A stretch of DNA of 64,000 bases from Minwuia thermotolerans. GTDB lineage: Bacteria; Pseudomonadota; Alphaproteobacteria; Minwuiales; Minwuiaceae. The stretch lies in assembly GCA_021604565.1 (NCBI GenBank), contig BQJF01000012.1, positions 6,429 through 70,428 of the forward strand, given 5' to 3'. Within the stretch, counting starts at the first letter, position 1. Each line of letters starts with the position of its first letter. Both the position numbers and the translations under genes were made by a program. The notes below the pieces were generated by a model. The model worked only from the letters and a program-made list of their open reading frames with translations, was not told the DNA's origin and made no database searches. Below are positions 17,963 to 37,841 of the stretch, one piece after another.

Positions 17963-18842
17963 GACAGACAGGACCGCCACGGGTCAGCCTGCCCCGCAGG
18001 ACAATGTACAGTGGACCCGTGTCATCCAGCCTCAGCGGGGCCTGTTTTCCGTGCCGCTTGCGGAGATCTGGGCCTATCGCGACCTGCTGCTGTTGCTGGT
18101 CCGGCGGGATTTCGTTGCGCTCTACAAGCAGACGGTACTGGGCCCGATCTGGTTCATCATCCAGCCCGTGATGATGACCATCGTGTTCACCATCGTCTTC
18201 GGCAACATCGCCAACATCTCCACCGACGGCGTGCCGCACACGGTGTTCTACTTGGCCGGCATCACCATGTGGACGTTCTTCGCCGATGCCTTCACCAAGA
18301 CGTCTGAGACTTTCATCATCAATGCCAACATCTTCGGCAAGGTTTATTTCCCGCGCGTCATCGTTCCACTGTCGGTGGTGCTGTCGGGGCTGCTGAAGTT
18401 TGCTGTCCAGTTCACCATCCTGATCGGTTTCGTCGCCTATTTCGCAGCGACGACGGAGATCGTGCGCCCGAACTGGGCTGTGCTGCTGCTGCCGCTGCTG
18501 TTGCTGATGATGGGCGCGCTGGGTCTCAGTCTCGGCATGATCATCTCCGCCCTGACCACCAAGTACCGGGATCTGCGGTTCCTGATGCAGTTCGGGGTCC
18601 AGTTGCTGATGTATGCAACGCCGGTGATCTATCCCGTCTCGTCCCTGCCTGATGCCTATCGGGTCTATATTCTGGCCAACCCCATCACACCCATCGTGGA
18701 AACCTTCCGCTATGCCTTTGTCGGGCGGGGAGACTTTGACCTGATGCACCTGGCCTACAGCGGTGGTGTGATCCTGACCTTGCTGATCCTGGCGACCGTG
18801 ATCTTCAATCAGGTCGAGAAGAATTTCATGGATACTGTCTGA
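17955..18842 (+). CDS. wzm: Polysaccharide ABC exporter permease (Wzm)
   Basis: YRDLLLLLVRRDF...YKQTVLGPIWFIIQP, KVYFPR, KYRDL, YATPVIYP, NPITPIVETFR. Confidence 0.92.
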   Translation: MTETDRTATGQPAPQDNVQWTRVIQPQRGLFSVPLAEIWAYRDLLLLLVRRDFVALYKQTVLGPIWFIIQPVMMTIVFTIVFGNIANISTDGVPHTVFYLAGITMWTFFADAFTKTSETFIINANIFGKVYFPRVIVPLSVVLSGLLKFAVQFTILIGFVAYFAATTEIVRPNWAVLLLPLLLLMMGALGLSLGMIISALTTKYRDLRFLMQFGVQLLMYATPVIYPVSSLPDAYRVYILANPITPIVETFRYAFVGRGDFDLMHLAYSGGVILTLLILATVIFNQVEKNFMDTV

Positions 18843-20137
18843 TGAGCACGCCCGCACTCAGGGTCGAGAACGTGTCCAAGATGTACCGTCTGGGCGAAGT
18901 CGGCACCGGCTCCCTGTCACATGACCTGAACCGGGTCTGGGCCCGTCTCCGCGGCCGCCCCGATCCCTATGCGCAGGTCGGTGCGGTGAACGACCGGGCC
19001 GGTGAAGGTACCAGGGACTTCGTCTGGGCCTTGCGTGACATCGATTTCGAGGTTGGCCAGGGCGAGATCGTCGGCATCATCGGGCGCAACGGCGCAGGCA
19101 AGTCCACCCTGCTGAAACTGCTGTCCCGGGTCACCGCCCCTACCGAAGGCAAGATCTTCATCAACGGACGCATCGCCAGCCTGCTGGAAGTCGGCACCGG
19201 GTTTCACCAGGACCTGACGGGGCGGGAGAATATTTTCCTCAATGGTGCCATCCTGGGCATGAACAAGCAGGAGATCCGCGCTCGCTTCGAGGAGATCGTC
19301 GAGTTCTCCGGCTGCGCGAAATACATCGACACGCCCGTGAAACGCTATTCCTCTGGCATGCATGTCCGCCTCGCCTTCGCCGTTGCCGCCCATCTGGAGA
19401 CCGATATCCTGATCGTCGACGAGGTGCTGGCCGTCGGCGACGCCGAATTCCAGCAGAAATGCCTGGGCAAGATGAAGGACCTGAGCACGAAGGGGCATCG
19501 GACCGTGCTTTTCGTCAGCCACAACATGGCCGCCGTCCGTCAGCTCTGCCCCCACTCGATCCTGATGAACCAGGGCACGGTGGTGAACAGCGGAGAGACC
19601 ACCGCAATCATCGAACAGTACATGACACTGGGCAGCGCCGCAGAGCGAGAGGTTTCGTGGGCGGCTGACGCGCGACCTTCCGGCGGCGCGCTGGCGCTGA
19701 ACAGCGTCCGTGTATGTGACCGCAACGGTAGCGTCGAGACGCCACTGAGCAGCGCGGACGATCTGTTCATCAATATCCACTTCGAACTGGCTGAAGCCGT
19801 CGCGAACCTCAGGGTCGGCATCTCGGTTCTCAATTCGGAAGGCGTGCTTCTTTTCCTCAGCAGTGACTTTGCTGCAGCCAAACCGGGTGGAACAAGGAGT
19901 CCAGGCAAGCATGTGAGCCGTGTTCGCCTTCCCGGGAGGATGCTGATCGCCGGACGCTACTCCCTGGAAGTTCACATCGAGATTCCTCGGACTCAGACTC
20001 TTGTGGACGGAGTCCTGTGCAACTTCGAGATCGCCGAGATGGCGCATGACAACTGGGGCCCCATGCTGGAATCCCGCACTCCTGGTGTTATCCATCCGGA
20101 ACTTGAATGGCAGACATTCATGACTTCTGAATCATGA
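18842..20137 (+). CDS. wzt: Polysaccharide ABC exporter ATPase (Wzt) with C-terminal extension
   Basis: GRNGAGKSTLL, LTGRENI, DTPVKRYSSGM, ILIVDEVLAVGD, plus about 170-aa beta-rich C-terminal domain. Confidence 0.93.
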   Translation: MSTPALRVENVSKMYRLGEVGTGSLSHDLNRVWARLRGRPDPYAQVGAVNDRAGEGTRDFVWALRDIDFEVGQGEIVGIIGRNGAGKSTLLKLLSRVTAPTEGKIFINGRIASLLEVGTGFHQDLTGRENIFLNGAILGMNKQEIRARFEEIVEFSGCAKYIDTPVKRYSSGMHVRLAFAVAAHLETDILIVDEVLAVGDAEFQQKCLGKMKDLSTKGHRTVLFVSHNMAAVRQLCPHSILMNQGTVVNSGETTAIIEQYMTLGSAAEREVSWAADARPSGGALALNSVRVCDRNGSVETPLSSADDLFINIHFELAEAVANLRVGISVLNSEGVLLFLSSDFAAAKPGGTRSPGKHVSRVRLPGRMLIAGRYSLEVHIEIPRTQTLVDGVLCNFEIAEMAHDNWGPMLESRTPGVIHPELEWQTFMTSES

Positions 20138-21282
20138 CCCAGGTTACCCGGCAGCACGTCGCATGCACTCGCTGCATCATGACTCTGGCAGATTCCGCGC
20201 TGCTGGAATTCGATGATCAGGGCGTCTGCAACCTCTGCCGTACCTTTGATACTGCCTTCGCCGCCATGCCAAGGACGTGGACCGATGCCGAACCGGAGCT
20301 CAACCGGACCGTCGAACGGCTGAAAGCGGCCGGAAAGGGCAAACCCTACGATTGTCTGATCGGTCTGTCCGGTGGGGTGGACAGCAGCTACATCGCATAC
20401 CTGATGAAACGGTACGACCTGCGCCCCCTGGCAGTGCATTTCGACAATGGCTGGAACACGGAACTGGCCGTCGAGAACATTGACCGCATCGTCACCAGGC
20501 TGGACATCGATCTGGTGACATATGTCATCGACTGGGACGACTTCAGGGAACTGCAACTCGCGTATCTGAGGGCCGGCGTCATCGATATCGAGGTACTGAC
20601 TGACCACGCGATCTTCGGGGCGCTCTACGACATCGCAATGCGCAACCGCATCAAGCACATCATCAGCGGGGTCAATGTCGCCACCGAGCACTTCATGCCG
20701 GATGGCTGGAATTACGAGAAGTATGATGCCTACAACATCATGGACATCTATCGAAAGCATGGTGGCACGAGGAAGCTGAGCAACTATCCCCTGATGGATC
20801 GGCGGAAGTGGCGGAAGTTGATGCGATCCGGCATCGAGCAGATCCAGATCCTGAACATGATCCCCTACAATGCAGCCGAAGCCCGCGAGACCATCGAGAG
20901 GGAACTTGGCTGGCGCCCCTATACCGGCAAGCACCACGAATCGATATTCACTCGTTTCTACCAGGGTTATCTGCTCCCCAGAAAATTTGGTGTCGACAAG
21001 CGCAAGGCGCATTTGTCCAATCTGGTGTGCAGTGGCCAGATGACCCGTGACGAGGCCTTGCGTGAATTCCAGCAGGAAATCTATTCACCTTCCGAACAAC
21101 GCGAAGATCTGGAATTCGTCTGCAAGAAACTTCAGGTTTCGGCTGAAGAATTCGAAGGGTTCATGCGCGCACCGCCGCGGCGCCATCTGGACTTCGAGAA
21201 CCACAGGTGGTTCTTTGCGCGATATCCGATATTCAAGCCGCTGCTGCCGCTTTGGCGCCTGTACAAGCGCCGCACGGCCTGA
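20134..21282 (+). CDS. N-acetyl-sugar amidotransferase (WbpG/AglX-like), copy 1
   Basis: N-terminal CxxC...CxxC, PP-loop YDCLIGLSGGVDSS, AVHFDNGWN, KHHESIFTRFYQ, DKRKAHLS. Confidence 0.88.
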   Translation: MTQVTRQHVACTRCIMTLADSALLEFDDQGVCNLCRTFDTAFAAMPRTWTDAEPELNRTVERLKAAGKGKPYDCLIGLSGGVDSSYIAYLMKRYDLRPLAVHFDNGWNTELAVENIDRIVTRLDIDLVTYVIDWDDFRELQLAYLRAGVIDIEVLTDHAIFGALYDIAMRNRIKHIISGVNVATEHFMPDGWNYEKYDAYNIMDIYRKHGGTRKLSNYPLMDRRKWRKLMRSGIEQIQILNMIPYNAAEARETIERELGWRPYTGKHHESIFTRFYQGYLLPRKFGVDKRKAHLSNLVCSGQMTRDEALREFQQEIYSPSEQREDLEFVCKKLQVSAEEFEGFMRAPPRRHLDFENHRWFFARYPIFKPLLPLWRLYKRRTA

Positions 21283-21285
21283 GCC

Positions 21286-22320
21286 ATGCCACCCGTCGTC
21301 TCCATCCTGACCCCCAGTTTCAACCGCGAGGACCTTGTCGCGGAAACGCTGGACTCCGTCCTGGCCCAGACATGGCCCCACTGGGAAATGCTGGTCGTCG
21401 ATGATGGCTCGACGGACAGGACCAAGGATATCGTGGCGGAATATGCCGCGCGCGACAGCAGGATCCGGCTGTTCGATCGCAGCTGGCAGCCCAAGGGGGC
21501 ATGCACCTGCCGCAACGAGGGCGTATCCATGTCCTCAGGCGACTATGTGATGTTTCTGGACACCGACGACATCATCGAGCCCTTCTGCCTGGAGAACCGG
21601 GTGAAGGCCATGGAAGCCGAGCCCGACCTGGATTTCGCGATCTTCCCCGGCCTGATGTTCGAACACAGACCGCATGACCTCGGCCTCTGGTGGAACACCG
21701 ACAAGCCGGAGGATGAACTGACCCGGCAGTTCCGGGGCGACGCCATCGCACAGGGGACGGGGGTTCTCTGGAACAGGGAATCCTTCGTGCGGATCGGCAT
21801 GTGGGACCTGGAACTGATGCTCTGGCAGGACATCGAACTGTTCTTCCGCGCCTATATCCAGGGCTATCGCTACCGCAAGTTCTTCGACCTGCCGCCTGAC
21901 CTGCACAACCGCGTCAATCCGACGAGCCTCAGCCGCGGCAACTTCTTCAGTCAGGAAAAGCAGTTGAGCCGGGTCAGGGTGGCGAAGCAGGCGGCGTCAA
22001 TGCTGCGGCAGAATGGTCAGCACCACCGACTGCACGAACTCCGCTACATGGTGGCGGAGATCGTGGCCGGTGCCGCCCGTTCCGGGCAACCGCGCCTCGC
22101 GATCTCGTTCCTGCTCTGGGCTTTCCGGGAGGGTGCGGTCAGCACCATGGAGGCATTGCGCATAGCTGGCGTCATTGGCCTCTACGGCGGACGCCTGACC
22201 CGGTTCACGCTTTTTCGCCGCTGGGCCGAAGCGCTGCAGAGTCCCTTCGTCGGCAAGGGAACAATCGGCCAGATCCCGACCACTACTCCAGTCACGACAA
22301 TGGCAGGCACATCCTCATGA
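21286..22320 (+). CDS. Glycosyltransferase family 2
   Basis: VSILTPSFNR, VVDDGSTD, RNEG, FLDTDD. Confidence 0.9.
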   Translation: MPPVVSILTPSFNREDLVAETLDSVLAQTWPHWEMLVVDDGSTDRTKDIVAEYAARDSRIRLFDRSWQPKGACTCRNEGVSMSSGDYVMFLDTDDIIEPFCLENRVKAMEAEPDLDFAIFPGLMFEHRPHDLGLWWNTDKPEDELTRQFRGDAIAQGTGVLWNRESFVRIGMWDLELMLWQDIELFFRAYIQGYRYRKFFDLPPDLHNRVNPTSLSRGNFFSQEKQLSRVRVAKQAASMLRQNGQHHRLHELRYMVAEIVAGAARSGQPRLAISFLLWAFREGAVSTMEALRIAGVIGLYGGRLTRFTLFRRWAEALQSPFVGKGTIGQIPTTTPVTTMAGTSS

Positions 22321-23087
22321 CCAGATCCCTCGCTGCAATCATTCCGGCCGCGGGGCGTGGTTCACGGCTGAAGCCGTTTCCCTGCCCGAAGGAACTTTTC
22401 CCGGTCGGCTATCAGGACGTGAGGATCGACGGCGCGCTGGAGAAACGACCGAAGGTGGTCAGCCAGTACCTGCTGGAACACATGGTCTCGGCTGGCGCGG
22501 AGCAGGTGTTCATCGTCCTGGGCGAAGGCAAGTCGGACATCATGCAGTATTACGGCAACGGCACCCGCTTCGGGGCCCATGTCAGCTACCTTTTTCAGGA
22601 AGAACTGCATGGCATGCCCTATGCCATCGACCTGGCCCGTCCCTGGCTGGATGACCACACGGTGCTGTTCGGCATGCCGGACACGATCATTGAACCCGCC
22701 GACTGTTTCAGCCAGTTGCTGGCGTTTCATGATCGCCACGGGGCCGATCTGACACTGGCCCTGTTCCCCACCGACAATCCCAGCAAGTTCGGCATGGTCG
22801 ACATGGATGAGAACAACGACGTCATCTGGACCTACGACAAGCCGGAGACATCGGACCTGCCCTGCACCTGGGGTGCCTGCTGCTGGTCGCCCGCATTCAC
22901 CGCATTGATCGGCGAGTATCTCGGCAACCTGAAACCCGGCAGCCGCGAGGTGGTCCTTGGGGACGTCTTCAATCATGCGATCGAACGGAAGATGCGGGTC
23001 AAGGCCACATCGTTCGAAGGGGCGAAATACATCGACATCGGCACCACAGCCGAACTCAACCTGGCCCTGCAGCAGTTCAACCTGTGA
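22317..23087 (+). CDS. Sugar-phosphate nucleotidyltransferase (RmlA-like)
   Basis: IIPAAGRGSRL...PKELFPV, GMPDT, FGMV, YIDIGT. Confidence 0.85.
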   Translation: MTRSLAAIIPAAGRGSRLKPFPCPKELFPVGYQDVRIDGALEKRPKVVSQYLLEHMVSAGAEQVFIVLGEGKSDIMQYYGNGTRFGAHVSYLFQEELHGMPYAIDLARPWLDDHTVLFGMPDTIIEPADCFSQLLAFHDRHGADLTLALFPTDNPSKFGMVDMDENNDVIWTYDKPETSDLPCTWGACCWSPAFTALIGEYLGNLKPGSREVVLGDVFNHAIERKMRVKATSFEGAKYIDIGTTAELNLALQQFNL

Positions 23088-24067
23088 GCGGCATGACCGA
23101 CCAGCCCACGATATCCGTCGTCATCCCCGTGAAGAACGAGGCGGCCGGAATTGCGGCGTGCCTCGACGGTATCCTGAGCCAGACTGTTCCGGTCCAGGAG
23201 ATTCTGGTGATCGACTCCGGTTCCACCGACGGAACGCAGGAGATCGTGCGGGGCTATGACCTGGCCCGTTTGCTGGAGATCGAGCCGACCGAATTCAATC
23301 ACGGCGACACCCGCAATCTGGGAGTCCAGGAGACCAGTGGCGAACTCATCCTCTTCACGGTTGGTGATGCACGCCCCGTGGATGACCGCTGGATCGAGCG
23401 GTTGCAGTCCGGTTTCCTCTCTGACGATGTGGCGGCGGTAGGCGGTATCCAGATCGTCGCCCACGACCCCCGCAACAATCCGCTGGAATGGTATCGGCCC
23501 GTGTCGGAACCGGTGCGGTCCGTCCACAGGTTCGGCAGTGCTGCCGAGTTTGATGCGGCGGACAGCGCCACGAAGCAGTCCGCCTGTGTCATCGACGATG
23601 TGACATCAATGTATCGACGCGCATTTCTTGAGGCGATCCCCTTCCGACGGGCGGTCTATGGAGAGGACATGCTGATCTGCGTCGATGCCCTGCGCGCGGG
23701 TCATGCGCTGGTCCGGGATCCTGCGGCCTGTGTCTTTCACTACCATCTGCAGAATTACAGGACGACGCTGCAACGGACAGTCGCCGTCAGTCTCATGCGC
23801 CATGACCTCTTCGGCACCACCTCCGGGACACCGGTATCGCAACCCGTCCGGGAGGCCGTGCGACTGATGCGGGAACCGTCACTCACCCTGCGCCAGAAGG
23901 TGCAGTGGTGGCGCAACCAGCGCCAGTGTTTCCGGGGCATGATGGATGGCATCGCATTGTTCGAGAAGGCGAGGTCGGAGGGCGCATCGGCTCTGGCTGC
24001 CCTGCACGAGGAATACCTTGGATCGCCCCCGATCCCGGTCAAGCGCGGGCAGGTGAACACCGCATGA
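23084..24067 (+). CDS. Glycosyltransferase family 2
   Basis: ISVVIPVKNE, IDSGSTDGT, FNHGDTRNLG, YGEDM. Confidence 0.88.
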   Translation: MSGMTDQPTISVVIPVKNEAAGIAACLDGILSQTVPVQEILVIDSGSTDGTQEIVRGYDLARLLEIEPTEFNHGDTRNLGVQETSGELILFTVGDARPVDDRWIERLQSGFLSDDVAAVGGIQIVAHDPRNNPLEWYRPVSEPVRSVHRFGSAAEFDAADSATKQSACVIDDVTSMYRRAFLEAIPFRRAVYGEDMLICVDALRAGHALVRDPAACVFHYHLQNYRTTLQRTVAVSLMRHDLFGTTSGTPVSQPVREAVRLMREPSLTLRQKVQWWRNQRQCFRGMMDGIALFEKARSEGASALAALHEEYLGSPPIPVKRGQVNTA

Positions 24068-24705
24068 CCGCAGGCCAGATCACCATCGTCGACTATGGCT
24101 GCGGAAACCCCGCCTCTATCCGCAACATGCTGAAGAAGCTGGGTATCAAGGCCACGATCACGTCGGAGGCGGAGGATATCCTCACCTCCGGCCGGATCAT
24201 CTTCCCCGGCGTCGGGGCCTTCGACTACGGAGCCGAAAGCATTCAGGAAAAGGGCATCGCGGAGGCCCTGGAACAGCGGGTGATCCGCGACGGCGTTCCG
24301 ATCCTGGGGATCTGTGTCGGCATGCAACTGTTTGCCCGCCGCAGTGACGAGGGCGAACTGCCCGGACTCGGCTGGATCGATGGCGATGTGCTGGCGTTCG
24401 ACCGCACCCGTCTTGGTCCGACCGACCGGGTGCCGCACATGGGCTGGGCCAGCCTGGACGTGAAGCAGCCGGAAACCGCGTTGCACGGCTTCCACGAGGA
24501 TCCGCGCTTCTATTTCGTGCATTCCTACCACATGGCCTGCGATCACCCGGCGGACGTCGCTGCGACGGCCCATCATGGGTACGACTTCTGCGCCGCAGTG
24601 GCGCACGGCAATCTGATCGGTGTTCAGTTTCATCCGGAGAAGAGTCATCGCTTCGGCATGACCCTGCTGCGCAACTTTGCCGAAGGAAAGACAGGCGCCG
24701 AATGA
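24064..24705 (+). CDS. hisH: Glycan-locus glutamine amidotransferase subunit (HisH2/AglY-like)
   Basis: IVDYGCGN, FPGVGAF, LGICVGMQL, VPHMGW, FYFVHSY, QFHPEKS; start ATG 24064 overlaps the previous stop. Confidence 0.92.
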   Translation: MTAGQITIVDYGCGNPASIRNMLKKLGIKATITSEAEDILTSGRIIFPGVGAFDYGAESIQEKGIAEALEQRVIRDGVPILGICVGMQLFARRSDEGELPGLGWIDGDVLAFDRTRLGPTDRVPHMGWASLDVKQPETALHGFHEDPRFYFVHSYHMACDHPADVAATAHHGYDFCAAVAHGNLIGVQFHPEKSHRFGMTLLRNFAEGKTGAE

Positions 24706-25493
24706 AACGTGTCCGCGTCATACCCACCCTGCTGATCGAGCAGGGACGTCTGGTGAAGACGATCAAGTTCGGCAAGCGGACCTATGTCGGTGATCCGGTG
24801 AACACGGTTCGCATCTTCAGCGACAAGGAAGTCGACGAACTGATGCTGCTGGACATCGGCGTGGCGAAGGCGGGCAAGGAGCCCGACTTCGACCTGCTGC
24901 GTGAAATCGCCAGCGAGTGTTTCATCCCCTTCGGCTACGGCGGCGGCATCCGCACACTGGAGCAGGCGCGCCGCGCCTTCGATGCCGGGGTCGAGAAGGT
25001 GGTGCTGAACACGGCTCTGCACCGCGCGCCGACACTGGCGGGCAAGATCGCGCGCATGTACGGCAATCAGGCAGTGGTGGCCAGCATCGACGTGAAGAAG
25101 GGCCTGCTGGGCGGCCAGAAGGTGATGACCGAATGCGGCTCCAGACGCGTTTCAGGGGACGTCACGGAGGTCGCGCGCAATGCGGTCGATGCCGGTGCGG
25201 GCGAGATCCTGCTGACGGCCATGGATCGCGACGGAACCTTCGACGGCTATGACATGGAACTGATCAGGCGGGTCACCGCCGCAGTCGATGTGCCGGTCAT
25301 CGCCAGTGGCGGTGCGCGCGGAATTCCCGATTTCCTCGCCGCGATCAAGGAAGGTGGCGCTTCCGCGGTCGCTGCGGGTGCCCATTTTGTCTTCAAGGGT
25401 CCGCACCGGGCCGTTCTGGTCAACTATCCCAGCCAGGCCGTCCTGCGCGAAGGGCTGTTCAATCACCTTGGTCCCGAAGACGTCCTTGTCTGA
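24702..25493 (+). CDS. hisF: Glycan-locus cyclase-like subunit (HisF2/AglZ-like)
   Basis: RVIPTLL, YVGDPVN, DELMLLDI, YGGGIR, GAGEILLTAMDRDGT, IASGG. Confidence 0.9.
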   Translation: MKRVRVIPTLLIEQGRLVKTIKFGKRTYVGDPVNTVRIFSDKEVDELMLLDIGVAKAGKEPDFDLLREIASECFIPFGYGGGIRTLEQARRAFDAGVEKVVLNTALHRAPTLAGKIARMYGNQAVVASIDVKKGLLGGQKVMTECGSRRVSGDVTEVARNAVDAGAGEILLTAMDRDGTFDGYDMELIRRVTAAVDVPVIASGGARGIPDFLAAIKEGGASAVAAGAHFVFKGPHRAVLVNYPSQAVLREGLFNHLGPEDVLV

Positions 25494-25531
25494 CCCCTTT
25501 TCATCCTTGAAACACTAGTCTGAAAGAGAAC

Positions 25532-26563
25532 ATGCAGCAGGTATCCCCCAACAGCACAGGCTTCGCCATTGTCGGTTGCGGCCGGATCGGTCAGCGCCAC
25601 GCCGGCCACGCCCCCAAGTTCGGACGCCTGACCGCGGTCTGCGATATCGTGCCGGAAAAGGCACAGCAAGTTGCGGCGGAACAGGGTGCTGAAGCCTTCA
25701 CCGATCTGGACCAGATGCTGAAGGACATGCGCGGCAAGGCCGATGTGGTGGCGATCTGCACCCCGAACGGCCTGCATGCGGAGCACACGATCAAGGCATT
25801 CCAGGCCGGGTACCATGTACTCTGCGAGAAGCCGATGGCCCTGACCGTTCACGAGTGCGGGGAGATGATCAAGGCGGGCGAGAAAGCCAATCGTCGCCTC
25901 TTCGTGGTCAAGCAGAACCGCTACAACCCGCCGGTGGAGCACCTGAAGAAACTGCTGGACCAGGGCGCGCTCGGGCGGATCTACAGCGTGCATCTCAACT
26001 GCTTCTGGAACCGCAATGACGCCTATTACGCCGACAGCTGGAAAGGCAGCCTGGCGATGGATGGCGGCACGCTCTACACCCAGTTCAGCCACTTTATCGA
26101 CCTGCTCTACTGGCTGGCCGGCGACGTTCAGGACGTGGCCAGCTTCATGGACAACTACTGCCATGCGGACTCGGTGGAATTCGAGGACGCCGGGGTCGCG
26201 ATCCTGCGCTTCTATAGCGGTGCCATCGGCAGCGTCAGCTTCACCATCAACAGCTTCGGGCGGAACATGGAGGGGTCGCTGACCCTGTTCTGCGAGAAGG
26301 GCACGATCAAGATCGGCGGCCAGTACCTGAACGAGATCGAGTACGAGAACATCGCCGGCATGGACCCGGCAGAGCTGAAACAGGGTCGGCCGCCGAACGA
26401 ATACGGGGCCTACCAGGGCTCCATGTCGAACCACGAGGATGTCTACGAGAACATCCAGCAGGTCCTGACTGCCGAAGGTTCCATCGGCACCATCGGTTTC
26501 GAGGGACTGAAGACCGTCGAGATCATCGACAAGATCTACAGGGCCGCGAAGATTGCCCCCTGA
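25532..26563 (+). CDS. Gfo/Idh/MocA oxidoreductase (WbpB/WlbA-like 3-dehydrogenase)
   Basis: AIVGCGRIG, ICTPNGLH, VLCEKPM, VKQNRYNP, GGTLYTQFSHFIDL. Confidence 0.85.
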   Translation: MQQVSPNSTGFAIVGCGRIGQRHAGHAPKFGRLTAVCDIVPEKAQQVAAEQGAEAFTDLDQMLKDMRGKADVVAICTPNGLHAEHTIKAFQAGYHVLCEKPMALTVHECGEMIKAGEKANRRLFVVKQNRYNPPVEHLKKLLDQGALGRIYSVHLNCFWNRNDAYYADSWKGSLAMDGGTLYTQFSHFIDLLYWLAGDVQDVASFMDNYCHADSVEFEDAGVAILRFYSGAIGSVSFTINSFGRNMEGSLTLFCEKGTIKIGGQYLNEIEYENIAGMDPAELKQGRPPNEYGAYQGSMSNHEDVYENIQQVLTAEGSIGTIGFEGLKTVEIIDKIYRAAKIAP

Positions 26564-27011
26564 CCTGAAGAGCGCCGGCATTCGCGACGTGACCTGCGGC
26601 GCGGACGTGACGATCGTCGAACCGTCGAACGTCTATCGCTGCACGCTGGGTGACGATTGCTTCGTCGGTCCGTTCGTCGAGATCCAGGCCGGGGTGGTGA
26701 TCGGCGCGCGGACGCGGGTGCAGTCGCACGCCTTCATCTGCGAACTGGTGACCATCGGGGAAGATTGCTTCATTTCCCACGGCGCGATGTTCATCAACGA
26801 CAGCTTCTCCGGCGGCGGCCCAGCACGTGGCGACCGGACCCGCTGGGGCCATACCCGCATCGGCAACAATGTCTCCATCGGCACCAATGCCACGATCATG
26901 CCCGTCAGCATCTGCGACGACGTCGTGGTCGGGGCCGGGGCCGTGGTGACGAAGGATATCACCGAACCCGGCTTCTATGTCGGAAACCCCGCAAGACGCA
27001 TGGAGCACTGA
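26553..27011 (+). CDS. Hexapeptide-repeat N-acetyltransferase (WbpD/WlbB-like)
   Basis: IGARTRVQSHAFICE, FISHGAMFIND, IGTNATI, VGAGAVVTKD, GNPAR. Confidence 0.85.
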   Translation: MPPDLKSAGIRDVTCGADVTIVEPSNVYRCTLGDDCFVGPFVEIQAGVVIGARTRVQSHAFICELVTIGEDCFISHGAMFINDSFSGGGPARGDRTRWGHTRIGNNVSIGTNATIMPVSICDDVVVGAGAVVTKDITEPGFYVGNPARRMEH

Positions 27012-27014
27012 CTG

Positions 27015-28124
27015 ATGCAGTTCGTGGACCTGAAGGCGCTGCACGACACGCTGCAGCCTGCACTGAACGAGACCATCGCGCGGGTGATCGACACCTCCGC
27101 CTTCATCCGCGGTAGGGATGTCGATGATTTCGAGCAGAACTTCGCGGCGCTGACCGGCGCGCGGCACTGTGTTTCCTGCGCCAACGGCACCGACGCGCTC
27201 TACATCGCGCTTCGGGCACTGGGGGCCGGGCCGGGCGACGAAGTCATTACCACCGCCCACAGCTGGATCGCCACCAGCGAGACCATCACCCAGACCGGCG
27301 CCAAGGTCGTGTTCGGCGATACGGAGGATGCCTTTTTCTGCCTCGACCCGGCAGAGGTGGAGGCGAAGATCACCCCGCGCACGAAGGGCGTGGTCGCGGT
27401 GCATCTCTATGGTCAGCCTGCGGCGATTGCCGAGATCAGGTCGATCTGCGACCGCCACGGGCTCTGGCTGATCGAGGACAGTGCCCAGGCACATCTGGCC
27501 GAAGCGGACGGGCAGCAGGTGGGCCGTTTCGGTGACGTTGCCACCTTCTCCTTCTATCCGGGCAAGAATCTGGGGGCGATGGGTGATGCCGGGTGCCTGA
27601 TCACGGACCGTGACGACATCGCGGAATTCGCCACCCTGTTCGCCCGCCATGGTGGCAAGAACAACCACGTCATGGAAGGAATCTGCAGCCGCATGGACGG
27701 GCTGCAGGCGGCTGTCCTGAACGTGAAGATGCCGCATCTGCCGGGCTGGAACGACGCCCGTCGCAAGGTTGCCACCCGCTACGATGCCCTGCTCGACGGA
27801 GTCGGTGACCTGATCCTGCCCGCGCAGCGTCCCGATGTGCGCCACGTCTATCACCTGTATGTGGTCCGCACCGGCGACCGCGACGGGCTGCAGAAGCATC
27901 TCGCGGCGGCGGGCGTGCCGACCGTCATCAACTACCCCCGCGCCCTGCCCTTCTATTCGGCCTATGACCATCTGGGCCATGTGCCGTCGGACTTCCCCGT
28001 GGCGCATGCCCACGCGTCGGAAATCCTGTCCCTGCCGATCCATCCACTGCTGACCGAGGCGGATCAGGATCAGGTGGTGGAAGCCGTCAGGAACTACTTC
28101 GCCAAGACAGGCGAGCGGGGCTGA
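27015..28124 (+). CDS. DegT/DnrJ/EryC1/StrS aminotransferase (WbpE/WlbC-like)
   Basis: ANGTDAL, VHLYGQ, IEDSAQAH, FSFYPGKNLGAMGDAG, SRMDGLQAA, HVYHLYV. Confidence 0.92.
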   Translation: MQFVDLKALHDTLQPALNETIARVIDTSAFIRGRDVDDFEQNFAALTGARHCVSCANGTDALYIALRALGAGPGDEVITTAHSWIATSETITQTGAKVVFGDTEDAFFCLDPAEVEAKITPRTKGVVAVHLYGQPAAIAEIRSICDRHGLWLIEDSAQAHLAEADGQQVGRFGDVATFSFYPGKNLGAMGDAGCLITDRDDIAEFATLFARHGGKNNHVMEGICSRMDGLQAAVLNVKMPHLPGWNDARRKVATRYDALLDGVGDLILPAQRPDVRHVYHLYVVRTGDRDGLQKHLAAAGVPTVINYPRALPFYSAYDHLGHVPSDFPVAHAHASEILSLPIHPLLTEADQDQVVEAVRNYFAKTGERG

Positions 28125-29014
28125 TGAGTCAGGGGAACGGCATGACGACATCTGCGCCAACGGTCAGTGTGCTGATGACCGCCTACAATCGCGCCGACTT
28201 CATCGCCGATGCGATGGGCAGCGTGCTGGCGTCCGACTTTGGCGACTTCGAGCTGATCGTGGTCGATGACGGGTCGAGTGACCGGACGGTCGAGATCGCA
28301 CGGGAGCTGGAAACTACCGACAGCCGGGTGCGTGTCTGTCAGAACGAGAAGAACCTTGGCGACTACCCGAACCGCAAGCACGCGGCCAGCCTCGCAAGAG
28401 GAAAGTACCTGAAGTACGTCGATTCCGACGACATGATCTATCCTTGGGGTCTGGGTGTCTTCGTACGCTGCATGGAGCAGTTCCCGGAAGCCGGTTTCGG
28501 GCTGTCAGCCCATTCCGCGCCTGATCGTCCACACCCGATGATCTTCTCCCCCGCTGAAGCCTACAGGGAAGAATTCCACGGGCGCGAACTGTTCGGACGT
28601 GCGCCCGGCTCCGGCATCGTCCGCCGCGACGCCTACGAGGCGGTCGGCGGTTTCAGCGGCATGCGCCAGCTGGGCGACATGGAATTCTGGCTCAAGATCG
28701 GAGCGCGATATCCGGTTGTCACCCTGCCACCCGCCCTGGTCTGGGACAGGGTGCATGGCGGTCAGGAGAAGAACGCCGATTCCGACACGGAGAAGACCGC
28801 GATGCGAGCGGGCGTCGTGATCGCCGCGCTCGAATCGCCGGATTGCCCGTTGGATGGCCCACAAAGGCAGGCTGCTCTGGTCTCCTGGCGTCAAAAGCAC
28901 ATGCGCCAGTTCTGGCGTCATCTGTTGCGCAATCGCCGTCCTGCTGAAGCCCTGAGATATTACCAGGCAATCAACGCTTCACTGAAAGGGGCGGGGCGTG
29001 CCGACGGTGTCTGA
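28124..29014 (+). CDS. Glycosyltransferase family 2
   Basis: VSVLMTAYNR, VVDDGSSD, KYVDSDD. Confidence 0.9.
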   Translation: MSQGNGMTTSAPTVSVLMTAYNRADFIADAMGSVLASDFGDFELIVVDDGSSDRTVEIARELETTDSRVRVCQNEKNLGDYPNRKHAASLARGKYLKYVDSDDMIYPWGLGVFVRCMEQFPEAGFGLSAHSAPDRPHPMIFSPAEAYREEFHGRELFGRAPGSGIVRRDAYEAVGGFSGMRQLGDMEFWLKIGARYPVVTLPPALVWDRVHGGQEKNADSDTEKTAMRAGVVIAALESPDCPLDGPQRQAALVSWRQKHMRQFWRHLLRNRRPAEALRYYQAINASLKGAGRADGV

Positions 29015-29134
29015 CTGGCAGCAATCTTCGCGTTCGTCTGCAGCGAACCGCAACACATCAGCCTGTGCAGGGCATGCCCTTCCGGCAGACATTCGACCGG
29101 ATGCAGATCTGTGCACAGTGCCTGAAGGTCGGCC

Positions 29135-30295
29135 ATGAACCTGTCCCGAAAGCCGATTCTGATGTTCGCCGGAACTCGGCCCGAGATCATCAAGCTGGCA
29201 CCGATCTATCAGCGGATGCGCGAAAGCCCGTCGCTGGTGCCGACATTTGTTCATACAGGCCAACAGCAGGAGATCGCCGAGGATGCGTTCAGGGATTTCG
29301 GGATTGTCCCGGAAATCCGTCTTTCCCTGCCCGAACGAAAGAACGAGGTCGCACAGATGCTTGCGGCACTGTTGCGAAGCATTGGCGCGTCCATGGAACA
29401 GCAGCAGCCCGCGGGCGCACTTGTACAGGGGGACACGACAACCACCCTTGCCGGAGCCATGTCCTGCTTCTACGCCGGGATGCCCTTTGGTCATGTGGAG
29501 GCTGGCCTGCGTACAGGAAACCTGCGCTCGCCATTTCCGGAGGAGGCCCACCGGCGGATGGTGGCACAGATTGCCGACTGGCATTTCGCCCCGACAGAGG
29601 CGAACAGGTCCAGTCTCATGAACGAGCACATCAAGGCGAAGGGCATCCATGTTACCGGGAACACGGTAATCGATGCGGCCGAGCACATTGCTCAACGGCT
29701 TCCCGCAACCATCTCGATAAGCAGCCTGCTCCCTGGTGATGGGCAGACAGGGAACTCCGCAACCCTGACCTGCGACGAACGGCTTGTTCTGGTCACCGCA
29801 CACAGGCGCGAGTCCTTCGACATGGGTATCGCATCGATCTGCCAGGCCGTGGCCCGGATAGCCGAGGATCTGACCGACCACCGGGTTGTCTTTCCCGTTC
29901 ACCCGAATCCCGCCGTCAGGAGCACTGTGGTTCAGATCCTGTCAGGAGCGAGCAATGTCCTGCTTGTCGATCCGGTCGGCTACAGGGACATGATCTGGCT
30001 GGTGAAGAACGCCAGGGCGATCATCACCGACTCAGGCGGCATTCAGGAAGAGGCGCCGACCTTCGGAACGCCGACGCTGGTCACACGGGATCTCACGGAA
30101 CGCATGGAAGCCGTAGAGGCCGGAGTGATCGATCTGGTTGGTACAGACGCGAACCGCATCCACGCGAAGGCCATCGAGTTTGCGACCGGCTCCGAGGCCA
30201 TCCGGCAAAGAAATCTGGCGACAGGAAACCCGTACGGCGACGGACATGCCGCTGACAGAATTGTCACGATTCTGGAATCGGAACTTTCTGCATGA
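29135..30295 (+). CDS. wecB: UDP-N-acetylglucosamine 2-epimerase (non-hydrolysing; WecB/WbpI family)
   Basis: GTRPEIIKLAP, VQGDTTT, HVEAGLR, PEEAHR, TAHRRES, TDSGGIQEEAP, NPYGDG. Confidence 0.93.
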   Translation: MNLSRKPILMFAGTRPEIIKLAPIYQRMRESPSLVPTFVHTGQQQEIAEDAFRDFGIVPEIRLSLPERKNEVAQMLAALLRSIGASMEQQQPAGALVQGDTTTTLAGAMSCFYAGMPFGHVEAGLRTGNLRSPFPEEAHRRMVAQIADWHFAPTEANRSSLMNEHIKAKGIHVTGNTVIDAAEHIAQRLPATISISSLLPGDGQTGNSATLTCDERLVLVTAHRRESFDMGIASICQAVARIAEDLTDHRVVFPVHPNPAVRSTVVQILSGASNVLLVDPVGYRDMIWLVKNARAIITDSGGIQEEAPTFGTPTLVTRDLTERMEAVEAGVIDLVGTDANRIHAKAIEFATGSEAIRQRNLATGNPYGDGHAADRIVTILESELSA

Positions 30296-30305
30296 TCGAG
30301 CTTCG

Positions 30306-31457
30306 ATGAGACTGCTGATCCTGGACAAGGATTATCCGGACAACACCCATGGTTATTCGGACGGGTTCGTAGAATCCCGTGCACTCGAATACAGGCGACT
30401 GGGGCATGAAGTGTCCGTTCTGCGATTCTTCCTGCCAAAGGAAGACAGCTATGCGCGGCTGGGAATCCCGGTTGCCTGCGCACCCGACCTTGCCAGCGTC
30501 AGAGGGGCCATGGACTCAATCGCACCCGATGTGATCATGGTCCACTTCTTCCAGGGCTGGATGTTGAAGAAGCTGTTCTCTGACCGGGAAACGCCTTTGG
30601 TTGTCTGGGTGCATGGCGTCGAAGCTCTGGGGTTCTGGCGACGTCTGTTCAACTTGTCCCAAGGTCGCGAGTTCCTGACCTATGCGAAATACAATCTGCT
30701 CCAGTTGCCGCGCATGCGGCGACTGTTGCGCGCAACACTTTCCCCCCGGCGACGTATCGGCGTCATTTTCGTCTCGAAGTGGATGAAGCGAGTCGCACTT
30801 ACTGACACACTCGCGTTCAGATCCAGACACAAGGTTATCCCGAATCCGATTTCCGTGGACTATTTCGCGTATCACGAGAAGCCGGTGGCCCTGCGCCATT
30901 CAATTCTGCTGATACGCTCCTTCAGTTCCCGCAAGTATGCGACCGACCTAGCCTGTGCGGCACTGACCAGGATGCTGCAGGCGAACCCGCAGGACCACTA
31001 CAAGGTCACGATCATCGGTTCAGGGCACTTCTTCGAGGAGGATGTGGCAGAACTGCGCGCTGATCCGCGGGTCGAAATTGTCAATCGCTTCCTGACACAT
31101 GAGGAGATCCGCGACCTGCACGCACAGCACGGAGTCTTCCTGTGCCCCACCCGTCAGGATGCGCAGGGCGTATCGATGTGCGAAGCGATGGCCAGTGGTC
31201 TCGTACCCATTGCGTCCCGCTCCACCGCGATCCCGGAATTCGTGCGTGACGGTCAGGACGGTTTCCTCACGCGCGACATTGATGGATTGGTCCATGCACT
31301 CACCCGGATCGCGAGAGAACCCGCTACCTTCGCGGCCATGTCTGCTTCCGCAGCATCTCACATTCGGGAATTGACCAACGTTGAAAGCATTGCCCGGCGA
31401 GAACTGGAGTTCGTCGATGAAATTGCAGGTACAGACATGCAGGTGAAGAGCAAATGA
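30306..31457 (+). CDS. Glycosyltransferase family 4
   Basis: FLCPTRQDAQGVSMCEAMASGLVPI; start at ATG 30306. Confidence 0.85.
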   Translation: MRLLILDKDYPDNTHGYSDGFVESRALEYRRLGHEVSVLRFFLPKEDSYARLGIPVACAPDLASVRGAMDSIAPDVIMVHFFQGWMLKKLFSDRETPLVVWVHGVEALGFWRRLFNLSQGREFLTYAKYNLLQLPRMRRLLRATLSPRRRIGVIFVSKWMKRVALTDTLAFRSRHKVIPNPISVDYFAYHEKPVALRHSILLIRSFSSRKYATDLACAALTRMLQANPQDHYKVTIIGSGHFFEEDVAELRADPRVEIVNRFLTHEEIRDLHAQHGVFLCPTRQDAQGVSMCEAMASGLVPIASRSTAIPEFVRDGQDGFLTRDIDGLVHALTRIAREPATFAAMSASAASHIRELTNVESIARRELEFVDEIAGTDMQVKSK

Positions 31458-32095
31458 ACCTAATCTCCCGACTTCTTGGCAAGCGGACACCTGAGTTCCA
31501 TGCCAGCCAATACTGGGAAGAACGGTATTCCGCTGGAGGATCCTCGGGCGACGGATCCACGGGTCGGCTGGCCGAGTTCAAGAGCGAATATCTGAACGCC
31601 AAGATCAGCGAGATCGGCGCTCGCTCGATCATCGAGTTCGGTTGTGGTGACGGCGAGCAACTCGAGATGCTGAAGATCGAGCGTTACACGGGCCTGGACG
31701 TGGCCGCTTCGGCAGTTGACCGGTGCAGCAAGAAGTTCGCGCACGACACGACCAAATCTTTCTTTCTCTACGACTCCAGTGCCTTCTGCGACCGGACCGG
31801 CATTTTCCTGTCCGATATCTCGATGAGCATCGATGTGACCTATCATATCGTCGATGAAGCCGTGCTCCGGCGTTACTACGAGCACCTGTTCCGGTCCGGA
31901 CGAAAGGCGGTCATTCTCTACACGACGGACTTCGACAGAAACGAAGCCTCCCACATTCGACACAGGAGGCCGGGCCCCTTTCTCCAGCGGTTCTCCGCAG
32001 ATTTTACACTCGCGGAAACCGTCCCCAACAAGTACCCCGGTTCCGGGCATCAGGAATCCGATGCGACGTTCTTCTTGTACCTGAGAAATGCCTGA
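31454..32095 (+). CDS. Class I SAM-dependent methyltransferase
   Basis: YWEERYSAGGSSGDGS, IIEFGCGDG, YTGLDVA, IDVTYHI. Confidence 0.85.
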   Translation: MNLISRLLGKRTPEFHASQYWEERYSAGGSSGDGSTGRLAEFKSEYLNAKISEIGARSIIEFGCGDGEQLEMLKIERYTGLDVAASAVDRCSKKFAHDTTKSFFLYDSSAFCDRTGIFLSDISMSIDVTYHIVDEAVLRRYYEHLFRSGRKAVILYTTDFDRNEASHIRHRRPGPFLQRFSADFTLAETVPNKYPGSGHQESDATFFLYLRNA

Positions 32096-33278
32096 TCACC
32101 GTCAAGTGGCAGGAAACCGGACGATGAACCAGATCCCCAACTACCGCCAGTGCAGCGTCGGGGTACTGGATACGGGTGACGATCCGGACATGCGCTTCGA
32201 CGACGAAGGGCGCTGCCACTACTACCATGATTACATGCGCGCCGCCGCCCAACTGGTCCACGAAGGACCGGAGGGTGAAGCCATGCTGCAGGCGCTGGCC
32301 GCGCAGATCCGTGCAGACGGCGAGGGCAAGCCCTACGACTGCATCATGGGTCTTAGCGGTGGTGTCGACAGCACCTATGTGGCCCTGCAGGCGCGCCGCC
32401 TGGGCCTGCGCCCGCTTGCCGTCCATCTCGACAATGGCTGGAACGCGGAACTGGCGGTCCAGAACATCGAGCAGATCGTCAGCCGCCTCGACATCGACCT
32501 GCATACCCATGTCATTGACTGGAACGAGTTCCGCGACCTGCAGCGCGCTCATCTGAAGGCGTCCGTGATCGACATCGAGGTCGTATCGGACCACGCGATA
32601 TTCGCCGTGCTGAACCAGTTGGCATCGAAGTACGGCATCCGCCATGTCCTCAGCGGCACCAATGTGGTGACCGAATTCGTCATGCCGCCGCACTGGATCT
32701 ATGCCAAGACCGATCATGTGAACATCAAGGCGATCCACGCCGCCTATGGCGAGGTGCCGCTGAAGACCTATCCCTTCATGTCACTGAAACTGAAGAAGTG
32801 GGACCTGATGTTCCGGGGACTGAGATCCCACTCCATCCTGAACCTGATGCCCTACGACAAGGCTGCCGTGAAACAGCGGATAATCGAGGAACTGGGCTGG
32901 CGGGACTATGGCGGCAAGCACCACGAGTCGATCTTCACCCGCTTCTACCAAGGTTACATCCTGCCGGTGAAGTTCGGCGTGGACAAGCGCAAGGCCCACC
33001 TGACCAATCTGATCTACGCCGGACAAATCACGAAGGATGACGCGCTGGCAGAACTGTCCGCCCCCCCTTACGACCCCGATCAGATGGAGGAGGATCGCCA
33101 GTTCGTCTCCAAGAAGCTGGGATTCACGCTGGCCGAGTTCGACGAGATCATGCGCGCCCCGCCGCGACCTCACAGTGATTTCGCTGTGGAACGGTCTGTC
33201 TACGAGACCTATCCCGCACTGCGCCCCCTGCGTGGAGCCTTCAACCTGATCAAGCGCCGCGCCGGAAAGCAGGCCTGA
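32088..33278 (+). CDS. N-acetyl-sugar amidotransferase (WbpG/AglX-like), copy 2
   Basis: PYDCIMGLSGGVDST, AVHLDNGWN, KHHESIFTRFYQ, DKRKAHLT; alternative start 32124. Confidence 0.88.
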   Translation: MPDHRQVAGNRTMNQIPNYRQCSVGVLDTGDDPDMRFDDEGRCHYYHDYMRAAAQLVHEGPEGEAMLQALAAQIRADGEGKPYDCIMGLSGGVDSTYVALQARRLGLRPLAVHLDNGWNAELAVQNIEQIVSRLDIDLHTHVIDWNEFRDLQRAHLKASVIDIEVVSDHAIFAVLNQLASKYGIRHVLSGTNVVTEFVMPPHWIYAKTDHVNIKAIHAAYGEVPLKTYPFMSLKLKKWDLMFRGLRSHSILNLMPYDKAAVKQRIIEELGWRDYGGKHHESIFTRFYQGYILPVKFGVDKRKAHLTNLIYAGQITKDDALAELSAPPYDPDQMEEDRQFVSKKLGFTLAEFDEIMRAPPRPHSDFAVERSVYETYPALRPLRGAFNLIKRRAGKQA

Positions 33279-33301: not shown

Positions 33302-34462
33302 ATGACCGAAACGGATGTTCAGTGGCTGAAGGACAGGCAGATCCTGCTGATCTCCCCGCAGGACTGGGACCACATACCCATTTCCAAGCATCACTATGCA
33401 GAGGCCCTGGGACTCGCGAACAGGGTGCTCTTTCTGGATCCCCCGGACTGGTCGATGCGCCCGGGCGTCGTGCGCAGAGTAGCCACGGAAAGGCCGGGAG
33501 TGGAACGCGTTACCTGGCGCCCATGCCTGCCAAGGGCACTGCGATTTCATGCGCCCTGGCTCTACCGGATCTGGATCGGACGGGAGGTCCGTCGGCTGGT
33601 CCGGACGCTGCGGGCCAGCCCGCATCTGGTCTGGTGCTTTGATTTCAACACCTATCCCGACCTTCGCGCATTCGGCGCATCGCGCGTGATCTTCCATCCG
33701 GTGGACCCCATCAGCGATCCCAGGCAGGCCCGGATCGGCCAGACCGCCGACCTTGTGCTCAGCGTGTCTGACCGCATTCTGGCGAGCGTGACGGCACATG
33801 CGCCAACACCCGTCAGTGCCGTGATCAATCATGGCACAGGGCCGGAATTCGAGGCACTGGCGCGCATGGAGCCGAGTACGCCGAGGCTGGATGACAACAT
33901 TCAATGCGGCTATTTCGGAAACCTCGACCGCCCCACCATCAACGTGGACCTGTTGGGTGTGGTTGCCCGACAGCATCCGGAGATCACCTTCCACTACTGG
34001 GGACCGTTCAGCGCGGGTTCACCCTTGGCGGTGGCGCTGGCGGATTGCGGGAACTGCCTGTTTCACGGCGCGCTGCCGAAAGCGGTACTGGCCGAGGCGG
34101 CAGCAAACATGGATTGCCTGTTACTGAGCTATCAGGACCACGAAACCGAGTCGGATCGTTCGAATTCGCACAAGTTCCTGGAGTATTTCGCGACCGGAAA
34201 AGTGGTTGTCAGCACCCGCATGTCGATCCATGCCGACGATCCGGAACTGATCCGCATGTCCAGTTCCTCCGATGACTGCGACTTCTGCGACCTCTTCAGC
34301 GAGACGGTGAACGACCTGGGCACCCACAACGCGCCGGAACGCCAGAGGCGGCGCAAGGCACTGGCGCTGCAGAATACCTACATCCGCAACATCGCACGGA
34401 TCGACAGCATTCTCTGCCAGATCGAGACAGCCACCGGCAGCAGCAAGGAAACGAGATCATGA
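33302..34462 (+). CDS. Putative GT-B fold glycosyltransferase
   Basis: ISKHHYA, GYFGNL, FHGAL, NSHKFLEYFATGKVVVST. Confidence 0.65.
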   Translation: MTETDVQWLKDRQILLISPQDWDHIPISKHHYAEALGLANRVLFLDPPDWSMRPGVVRRVATERPGVERVTWRPCLPRALRFHAPWLYRIWIGREVRRLVRTLRASPHLVWCFDFNTYPDLRAFGASRVIFHPVDPISDPRQARIGQTADLVLSVSDRILASVTAHAPTPVSAVINHGTGPEFEALARMEPSTPRLDDNIQCGYFGNLDRPTINVDLLGVVARQHPEITFHYWGPFSAGSPLAVALADCGNCLFHGALPKAVLAEAAANMDCLLLSYQDHETESDRSNSHKFLEYFATGKVVVSTRMSIHADDPELIRMSSSSDDCDFCDLFSETVNDLGTHNAPERQRRRKALALQNTYIRNIARIDSILCQIETATGSSKETRS

Positions 34463-35295
34463 GCCTGAAACGATTGATCGCCCGCAGTGTCGATGTGCTG
34501 CCCTGGGGTGTGCGCAACCGTATCAAGTCGCTGCCACTGGTGGCGCCCTTGCAGCGCTGGCTGGTCAATTCGGCAATGAAGGACGCGGAGTTCGTGCACC
34601 GCATCACCGCCGGTCCCGCCACGGGGCTGTCCATGCGGATCAGACTGCCGGAAGACAAACTGTACTGGACCGGCACCTGGGAGCAGGACGTGACCAGCGC
34701 GCTCGCGGCAGAGGTCACACCGGGGATGGTCTGCTACGACATCGGCAGTCACCGGGGATTCATGGCCGGTGTCATGGCCGCCAGCGGCGCCACGGAGGTG
34801 ATCTGCTTCGAACCGAACCCCCAGAATGCGGGGACGATCGAGGACCTGATTGCCCTCAATCCGCAGATGAAACTCTCGCTGCAGACGATCGCCGTGGGCG
34901 CGGCCGACACCACGGCCACCTTCGAGGTCATGCCGGAGACCAGCATGGGCAAGCTTTCCAGCTCCAGCTTCCAGCACGGCACCGATGGTCAGACGCGGAT
35001 CGAGGTGCAGGTCGCGCGGCTGGATACCCTGATCGACAATCAGGTCATTGCCCCGCCGGACCTGCTGAAGATCGATATCGAGGGCGCAGAGCAGGATGCC
35101 CTGAAGGGTGCGGTCGCCACCATCGAGAAGTTCAGGCCGACCCTGCTGATCGAGGTCCACTCCCACGATCTTCTGACAAGCTGCCGCCAGTGGCTGGCTG
35201 AGCGAAACTACAGGATGCACGTGGTGCAACAGGACCTGGACACGATCACCGCGGCCAACTTCCATGTCTGTCATCTGGTGGCAAAGCCCGCCTGA
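34459..35295 (+). CDS. FkbM-family methyltransferase
   Basis: YDIGSHRG, CFEPNP, VARLDTL, LLKIDIEGAE. Confidence 0.9.
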   Translation: MSLKRLIARSVDVLPWGVRNRIKSLPLVAPLQRWLVNSAMKDAEFVHRITAGPATGLSMRIRLPEDKLYWTGTWEQDVTSALAAEVTPGMVCYDIGSHRGFMAGVMAASGATEVICFEPNPQNAGTIEDLIALNPQMKLSLQTIAVGAADTTATFEVMPETSMGKLSSSSFQHGTDGQTRIEVQVARLDTLIDNQVIAPPDLLKIDIEGAEQDALKGAVATIEKFRPTLLIEVHSHDLLTSCRQWLAERNYRMHVVQQDLDTITAANFHVCHLVAKPA

Positions 35296-37831: not shown

Positions 37832-37841
37832 TGGAATTCCC

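Follow-up and report, generated by a model that had tools for sequence, protein, structure and literature searches.

A 64,000-nucleotide stretch of the Minwuia thermotolerans contig BQJF01000012.1 (assembly GCA_021604565.1, positions 6,429 to 70,428; hereafter the window) carries a surface-polysaccharide operon of the ABC-transporter (Wzm/Wzt) type that encodes two paralogous amidotransferases of the NASAT/WbuX family, here called W1 and W2, together with a single glutaminase subunit, HisH2, and a single partner protein, HisF2. Judging from the sequences, we consider it probable that W1 and W2 are both active and non-redundant, that the one HisH2/HisF2 pair supplies both with ammonia, and that they amidinate different N-acetyl groups of the glycan exported by Wzm/Wzt. 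Pfam and NCBIfam scans delimited the operon at ~14.9–44.2 kb on the forward strand (14902-44234), where neighbouring genes mostly overlap by 1–19 nt and the widest gaps measure 120 and 243 nt. All four genes of interest lie within it, in a cluster where stop codons overlap the start codons that follow. A preliminary description of the window had proposed that two different positions or sugars are modified; as the paralogues are old, have been retained together across phyla and are intact at the conserved residues, two separate modifications are favoured over redundancy, while the chemistry, the substrates and the use of one HisH2/HisF2 pair by both enzymes are what we infer.

Two intact paralogues of ancient origin

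Family membership was assigned with TIGR03573 (WbuX), whose curated cut-off of 203.2 bits was passed by W1 (20134-21282, + strand, 382 aa, 301.5 bits) and by W2 (32088-33278, + strand, 396 aa, 258.4 bits), the latter belonging to a Cys-less subfamily. The two proteins share 50% identity over 374 residues (E = 3e-134), and the three long near-identical blocks that had first drawn attention to a pair of PP-loop proteins about 12 kb apart were all recovered, with the starts of W1 and W2 separated by 11,954 bp. The PP-loop motif LSGGVDS is present in both, its S, G, G, D and S being invariant across 107 family members, and W1 and W2 depart from none of the 24 columns whose conservation among these NASATs reaches 90%, save for one conservative V/I substitution. 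W1 carries the zinc tetracysteine (C11, C14, C32 and C35; CTRC...GVCNLC) and gives a weak match to PF00733. The AlphaFold2 (AF2) model of W2 was confident (predicted local distance difference test, pLDDT, 93 overall and 97–98 over the former zinc-ribbon region), and its top match in the PDB by Foldseek was LpNASAT (8WEX; E = 2e-14, template modelling score, TM, 0.64–0.65), with further matches to AsnB and NAD synthetase folds. That one copy is a pseudogene or inactive was rejected on the absence of stops, the retention of all conserved columns and the confident W2 fold. A search for specificity-determining residues between W1-type and W2-type sequences returned no column under strict criteria, in part because the W1-type group was not resolved as a clade.

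We inferred trees from 107 NASAT sequences and then from 58 sequences under LG+C20. W1 grouped with a related copy from a second contig of the assembly (C206, described below) and a protein of Caulobacteraceae UBA5005 (support 100/100), and W2 grouped with proteins of other Minwuia, a second UBA5005 protein and proteins of Magnetococcales and Gemmatimonadaceae (support 100/99), such that W1 and W2 each have a UBA5005 copy as sister. A recent duplication within Minwuia was rejected, as forcing a single Minwuia clade cost 164 log-likelihood units (approximately unbiased test, p-AU = 6e-62; the constrained Minwuia-only group was chosen after inspection of the tree). The phylogenetic check suggested in the preliminary description, recent duplication versus separate clades, was thereby decided for two separate and supported clades. 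Close relatives of W2 were found in Minwuia metagenome-assembled genomes (MAGs) and ‘Kordiimonadales bacterium IMCC3096’, at 87–96% identity, which places the window in Minwuia, a marine alphaproteobacterium. An apparent frameshift in the W1 orthologue of IMCC3096 (G006) was discounted, both hits lying within one intact open frame of 452 aa.

Gene order is a stronger argument than the tree for an ancient pair. We found the shared order Wzm-Wzt-W1-GT2-x-GT2-GT2-GT4-W2-HisH-HisF-WbpB-WbpD-WbpE-GT-GT4-GT4 (GT, glycosyltransferase, with family number) in Minwuia, in a Caulobacteraceae MAG (L028) and in three Bacteroidota MAGs (L031, L032 and L058), and a W1/W2 pair spaced by ~11 kb is also present in three more Minwuia species (G001, G002 and G006), bringing the total to four. 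Relative to the ancestral order, the window has its HisH-HisF-WbpB/D/E block moved upstream of a GT2 gene. The W1 slot is occupied differently in one Minwuia relative, G008 (=L026), in which a 611-aa AsnB-type glutamine amidotransferase (L026:2130-3965) stands between Wzt and GT2 while the rest of the cluster is syntenic and W2-HisH-HisF are contiguous; this position of the cluster may vary with serotype and accommodate one or another ‘amidating’ enzyme. We found no description in the literature of this cross-phylum diacetamido-hexose cassette with two NASATs, from which we predict that Alphaproteobacteria and Bacteroidota of marine and fresh waters have in common a glycan that is still uncharacterised.

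Proposed ammonia supply and chemistry

HisH2 (24064-24705, + strand; GATase PF00117; TIGR01855, 209 bits), whose start was refined to the ATG at 24064 overlapping the stop of the preceding GT2 gene, retains the glutaminase triad motifs, with the Cys in GICVGMQ and the His-Glu in FHPEKS. HisF2 (24702-25493, + strand) is of the AglZ/WbuZ type, scoring 325.9 bits against NF038364 (AglZ/HisF2; cut-off 310 bits), and was also matched by TIGR03572. Alignment with the housekeeping HisF of the same genome showed VIPTLLI in place of IIPCLDV, so that the first cyclase aspartate, which we take to be the equivalent of Asp11 of Thermotoga HisF, is a leucine; as judged from the alignment, its loss fits a role of HisF2 as an ammonia conduit only.

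Within the window there is only one HisH2 and one HisF2, and a whole-genome scan detected no other His_biosynth genes on the window contig, the housekeeping hisA and hisF being located on contig C10, away from HisH2/HisF2. The single hisH-hisF pair noted in the preliminary description is accordingly correct for the window and its contig, and not for the genome (a 234-contig bin, G000), where contig C143 carries a further HisH/HisF2 pair. Genome-wide, HisF2-type genes numbered two (window and C143) beside the housekeeping hisA/hisF, and five NASAT hits were recovered, namely W1, W2, W3 on C143, W4 on C20 and a truncated W1-like copy on C206, so that NASATs outnumber ammonia suppliers. W3 is a Cys-less protein of 443 aa with an LpNASAT-like insertion and its own HisH/HisF2 pair (C143:2900-6472). 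In that second HisF2 the first catalytic Asp is kept and the second catalytic position is Glu; the gene next to the pair resembles a CMP-sugar cytidylyltransferase and an open reading frame (ORF) beyond it resembles a radical-SAM protein, both judged from translation only. W4 (C20:34301-37152) is an orphan NASAT that adjoins an AsnB-like gene. The 2.7-kb contig C206 carries a Wzt gene with 88% identity to the window Wzt over its first 722 bp and a diverging sequence thereafter, and downstream of it a NASAT that is 65% identical to W1 and cut by the contig end. We take C206 to be more probably a variant of the window locus from a co-binned strain or serotype than a second locus, because the closed or near-closed Minwuia genomes that carry a W1-type gene (G001, G006 and G011) hold no more than one each.

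By analogy with characterised systems, the one HisH2/HisF2 pair would be shared by W1 and W2. HisH2 would hydrolyse glutamine and HisF2 would conduct the released ammonia, with each NASAT docking on HisF2, as has been predicted and then confirmed by pull-down for WbpG and HisF2 of P. aeruginosa (PMC11445079). The NASAT would spend ATP (giving AMP + PPi) to adenylate an N-acetyl group of the sugar at its carbonyl oxygen, and ammonia would displace the adenylate to leave a positively charged acetamidino group. Conversion of N-acetyl to acetamidino groups with ATP and ammonia is the activity we would predict from sequence for W1 and W2 alike.

The likely targets differ between the two enzymes. 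Downstream of HisF2 lie genes for a WbpB-like GFO/MocA oxidoreductase (25532-26563), a WbpD-like left-handed β-helix (LbH) N-acetyltransferase (26553-27011) and a WbpE-like DegT aminotransferase (27015-28124), all on the + strand, followed by a WecB/WbpI-like UDP-GlcNAc 2-epimerase (29135-30295, + strand; TIGR00236, 364 bits). The corresponding Pfam and NCBIfam domain families occur in that order (GFO/MocA, LbH, DegT, WecB), no equivalog-level model was matched and the substrate specificities are predictions; the WbpB/D/E-like trio would form a module making a 2,3-diacetamido-2,3-dideoxy sugar. This trio accompanies W2-type NASATs in many loci. Since W2 is contiguous with HisH-HisF-WbpB-WbpD-WbpE in the ancestral order and travels with the trio, it is probably a WbpG-like enzyme, which would most likely amidinate the nucleotide-linked 2,3-diacetamido-2,3-dideoxy hexose produced by WbpB/E/D. 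W1 would most likely amidinate a second N-acetyl group, whether on the same sugar, at its other position, or on another residue; its gene is translationally coupled to that of Wzt (18842-20137, + strand), an ABC-transporter ATPase (PF00005, 78.6 bits) with a C-terminal glycan-binding Wzt_C domain (PF14524, 31.2 bits), through a 4-nt overlap of the Wzt stop and the W1 start, and has a conserved GT2 block downstream. Natural amidines are also known at C2 of 2,3-diamino sugars (L-GalNAm3NAcA of Pseudoalteromonas rubra) and on FucNAc and GalNAcA (PMC3210612), and ManNAc3NAmA is an example at C3. Because both C2 and C3 amidines occur in nature, either regiochemistry is plausible.

The window contig, and with it the cluster, showed no UDP-sugar 6-dehydrogenase (WbpA, PF03721), nor did the syntenic cassettes, and a TviB/WbpA-like gene was present only on contig C9 (439 bits, below the cut-off of 592). 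The suggestion of a zwitterionic polysaccharide in the preliminary description is thus unsupported, as the cassette encodes no uronic-acid dehydrogenase, and the product, if amidinated, would be cationic in the absence of additional acidic groups.

Competing explanations and the Cys-less subfamily

Several observations weigh against two amidinating enzymes with a common supply. In the window neither W1 nor W2 adjoins HisH/HisF, and the second HisH/HisF2 pair on C143 and the orphan NASAT on C20 leave room for supply in trans or for direct use of NH3. The AsnB-type gene in the W1 slot of G008 hints that this slot may serve another kind of amidation. W2 is without the zinc tetracysteine, its sequence at this site being CSVG...GRCHYY (C22-x2-G25 ... 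C43-x2-Y46), and the structure paper on LpNASAT described the motif CxxC...[GN]xCxxC as characteristic of and conserved in the family (PMC10607449). The deep backbone of the NASAT tree is not resolved, and the substrates predicted for W1 and W2 come from gene neighbourhood.

Among the alternatives, the one that best withstands these data, though we hold it to be unlikely, is that HisH2/HisF2 serves W2 only and that W1 uses free ammonia or another glutaminase, such that nothing is shared. W1 and the HisH/HisF pair nevertheless belong to one operon, with 2.8 kb between them; unrelated genomes repeat the combination of several NASATs and one HisH/HisF, and the PseA/PtmG locus of C. jejuni likewise has one HisH/HisF pair. 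These points are set against the ancestral order, with W2-HisH-HisF contiguous and W1 6–9 kb off, the presence of W4 with no HisF nearby, the acceptance of NH3 by many PP-loop enzymes and the fact that the AsnB-type replacement in G008 brings its own glutaminase.

The same replacement bears on the nature of the reaction. One NASAT, most likely W1, might make a carboxamide (for example, a uronamide) from a carboxylate, in which case the glycan would have an amidine and an amide. In favour of this, an AsnB-type enzyme sits exactly in the W1 slot of the otherwise syntenic G008 cluster, and the loci fetched include 15 or more in which AsnB-like genes accompany NASATs. The synthetase domains of AsnB are likewise PP-loop enzymes, in keeping with the PF00733 match of W1 and the resemblance of the W2 model to AsnB and NAD synthetase, and the O-antigen of V. 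vulnificus has both a uronamide and an amidine. We nonetheless find this improbable: W1 is the more canonical of the pair (Cys4 motif and 301 bits against TIGR03573), no carboxamide-forming NASAT has been reported, neither the cluster nor the syntenic cassettes encode a uronic-acid dehydrogenase, and the variable Wzt-adjacent slot may just house serotype-specific genes.

That W1 and W2 are redundant isozymes, or that one is an inactive remnant and the glycan has a single amidino modification, is very improbable, for although W2 has lost two of the four zinc ligands called conserved in the family and W1 is dispensable within the genus, being absent in G008, every family-conserved residue is kept in both, many HisH/HisF loci have a Cys-less protein as their only NASAT, the pair has been kept across phyla at only 50% identity with recent duplication rejected, and W2 has a NASAT fold of high confidence.

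We assessed the zinc site across the family and found the tetracysteine missing in 46 of 104 scorable NASATs, with at least seven state changes on the tree; the motif is therefore not universal among the sampled members. Cys-less proteins made up the whole W2 clade, one further clade and the Minwuia W3 clade, and their second and fourth positions are replaced by S/T/G and Y/W/F, respectively. Since Cys-less NASATs are often the only NASAT directly beside HisH-HisF, W2's type would be competent on its own, and the missing tetracysteine of W2 does not look like decay. Members without the motif included W2 itself, NASATs from loci L022-L058, L090, L041, L048, L050, L051, L055, L057, L066 and L070, and that of G000:C143. 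W2 and W3, Minwuia paralogues that are unrelated to each other, have both lost it. A site described as conserved is thus dispensable in nearly half of the sampled NASATs, a correction that is useful for modelling the mechanism.

The gene directly after W2 (33302-34462, + strand, 386 aa) also relates to this subfamily. Its product had no Pfam match above cut-off and showed weak GT1/GT4 matches across 27 homologues, and its AF2 model (pLDDT 90.5) matched PimA, MshA and BshA by Foldseek, from which it is modelled as a divergent GT-B (GT4-like) glycosyltransferase. A homologue adjoins 13 of 38 Cys-less vs. 1 of 52 Cys4 NASATs (Fisher P = 3e-5, uncorrected for phylogeny). The preference of this glycosyltransferase for Cys-less neighbours spans phyla. 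No description of a large zinc-less NASAT subfamily with a GT-B partner was found in the literature.

A more specific form of the two-amidination model, which we put forward only as a doubtful conjecture, is that W1 and W2 modify N-2 and N-3 of the same WbpB/E/D sugar. The product would be a doubly cationic 2,3-di(acetamidino)-2,3-dideoxy hexose in a polycationic, not zwitterionic, glycan exported by Wzm/Wzt, the cassette would have spread horizontally in Alphaproteobacteria and Bacteroidota, and the zinc-less NASATs and their GT-B partner would be specialised for it. We know of no report of such a hexose.

Operon context and relation to known systems

The remaining genes of the operon also lie on the + strand. 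GalE (14902-15906), a GT4 (15906-16994), Gmd (16991-17962) and Wzm (17955-18842) precede Wzt, and a GT2, a sugar-1-phosphate nucleotidyltransferase (NTP-transferase) and a second GT2, in this order (21286-24067), separate W1 from HisH2. The WbpE-like gene is followed by a GT2 (28124-29014), and the WecB/WbpI-like gene by a GT4 and then a methyltransferase (30306-32095). The WecB-GT4-methyltransferase block (29135-32095) has a lower GC content (0.578), WbpI and the methyltransferase (MT31454) had no matches in loci L023-L028, and other Minwuia loci carry an unrelated GT4 there; the block is a strain-specific replacement. Downstream of the GT-B gene lie an FkbM methyltransferase, several GT4s, a methyltransferase, a 470-aa protein and a GT4 (34459-42486), and finally a carbamoyltransferase (42408-44234). 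The 470-aa ORF (39917-41329) had no Pfam or NCBIfam match, lies in the segment of lowest GC in the window (0.53) and is conserved in other Minwuia clusters; it may encode a membrane polymerase or ligase-like protein. Divergent from the ~30-kb glycan operon is a gene for a NusG/KOW paralogue (RfaH-like; 13710-14222, − strand).

We also quantified how commonly several NASATs occur with one HisH/HisF. Among 79 species-level loci fetched using W2, with HisH/HisF counted within ±10 kb, about 9 combined at least two NASATs with a single HisH/HisF (~10–15% of sampled NASAT loci), and multi-NASAT loci were found in Flavipsychrobacter (three copies), Pyrinomonadaceae, a Thorarchaeota archaeon and Brevundimonas. 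Evenly sampling 200 alphaproteobacterial species, we found a NASAT in 39 and at least two in 11, and NASAT:HisF2 ratios of 2:1, 3:2 or 4:3 within one locus were observed in several sampled genomes (G112, G126, G140, G177 and G093). The recurrence of the arrangement in these related loci and in several of the 39 NASAT-bearing species, together with the functional precedent of C. jejuni, indicates that it is not very unusual.

These findings do not overturn current understanding. Surface glycans acquire a permanent positive charge from acetamidino groups, which shape serotype as well as phage, tailocin and immune recognition. If the model of two amidinations from one supply is true, a single glutaminase/channel pair serving two different PP-loop amidotransferases would be new biochemistry, as would the N-acetyl target of each. 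To our knowledge the NASAT family is represented by one crystal structure only, and we found no in vitro reconstitution.

That structure, LpNASAT of Legionella pneumophila (8WEX), is a PP-loop protein with the same overall basin-shaped fold as the W2 model, but it has a zinc-binding tetracysteine and an extra loop, and in sequence it is closer to W3 than to W1 or W2, the match to W1 covering only 80 residues (E = 1e-9). The three-component architecture is shared with WbuX/WbuY/WbuZ of E. coli O145 (L-FucNAm) and AglX/AglY/AglZ of M. maripaludis, whose likeness to W1, W2 and HisF2 is by NCBIfam models only, and both of these systems, unlike the Minwuia operon, have a single NASAT per HisH/HisF pair. 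In the B-band O-antigen cluster of P. aeruginosa O5 (ManNAc3NAmA), the NASAT WbpG likewise comes with dedicated HisH2/HisF2 and with WbpB/WbpE/WbpD/WbpI-type genes, and it is a 2,3-diacetamido sugar that receives the amidine; that cluster has one NASAT, is Wzy-dependent and includes WbpA, whereas the Minwuia cluster has two NASATs and Wzm/Wzt and is without a 6-dehydrogenase.

The flagellin-glycosylation island of C. jejuni, which contains PseA (Cj1316c), HisH (Cj1315c), HisF (Cj1314c) and PtmG (Cj1324) (PMC12102941), is alike in having two NASATs and one HisH/HisF in one glycan locus, each NASAT acting on a different sugar: PseAm formation requires PseA, and PtmG turns CMP-Leg5Ac7Ac into CMP-Leg5Am7Ac (PMC3766260). 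It differs in that its substrates are CMP-nonulosonic acids destined for flagellin O-glycosylation, whereas the Minwuia operon couples Wzm/Wzt export to a WbpB/D/E module and includes one zinc-less paralogue.

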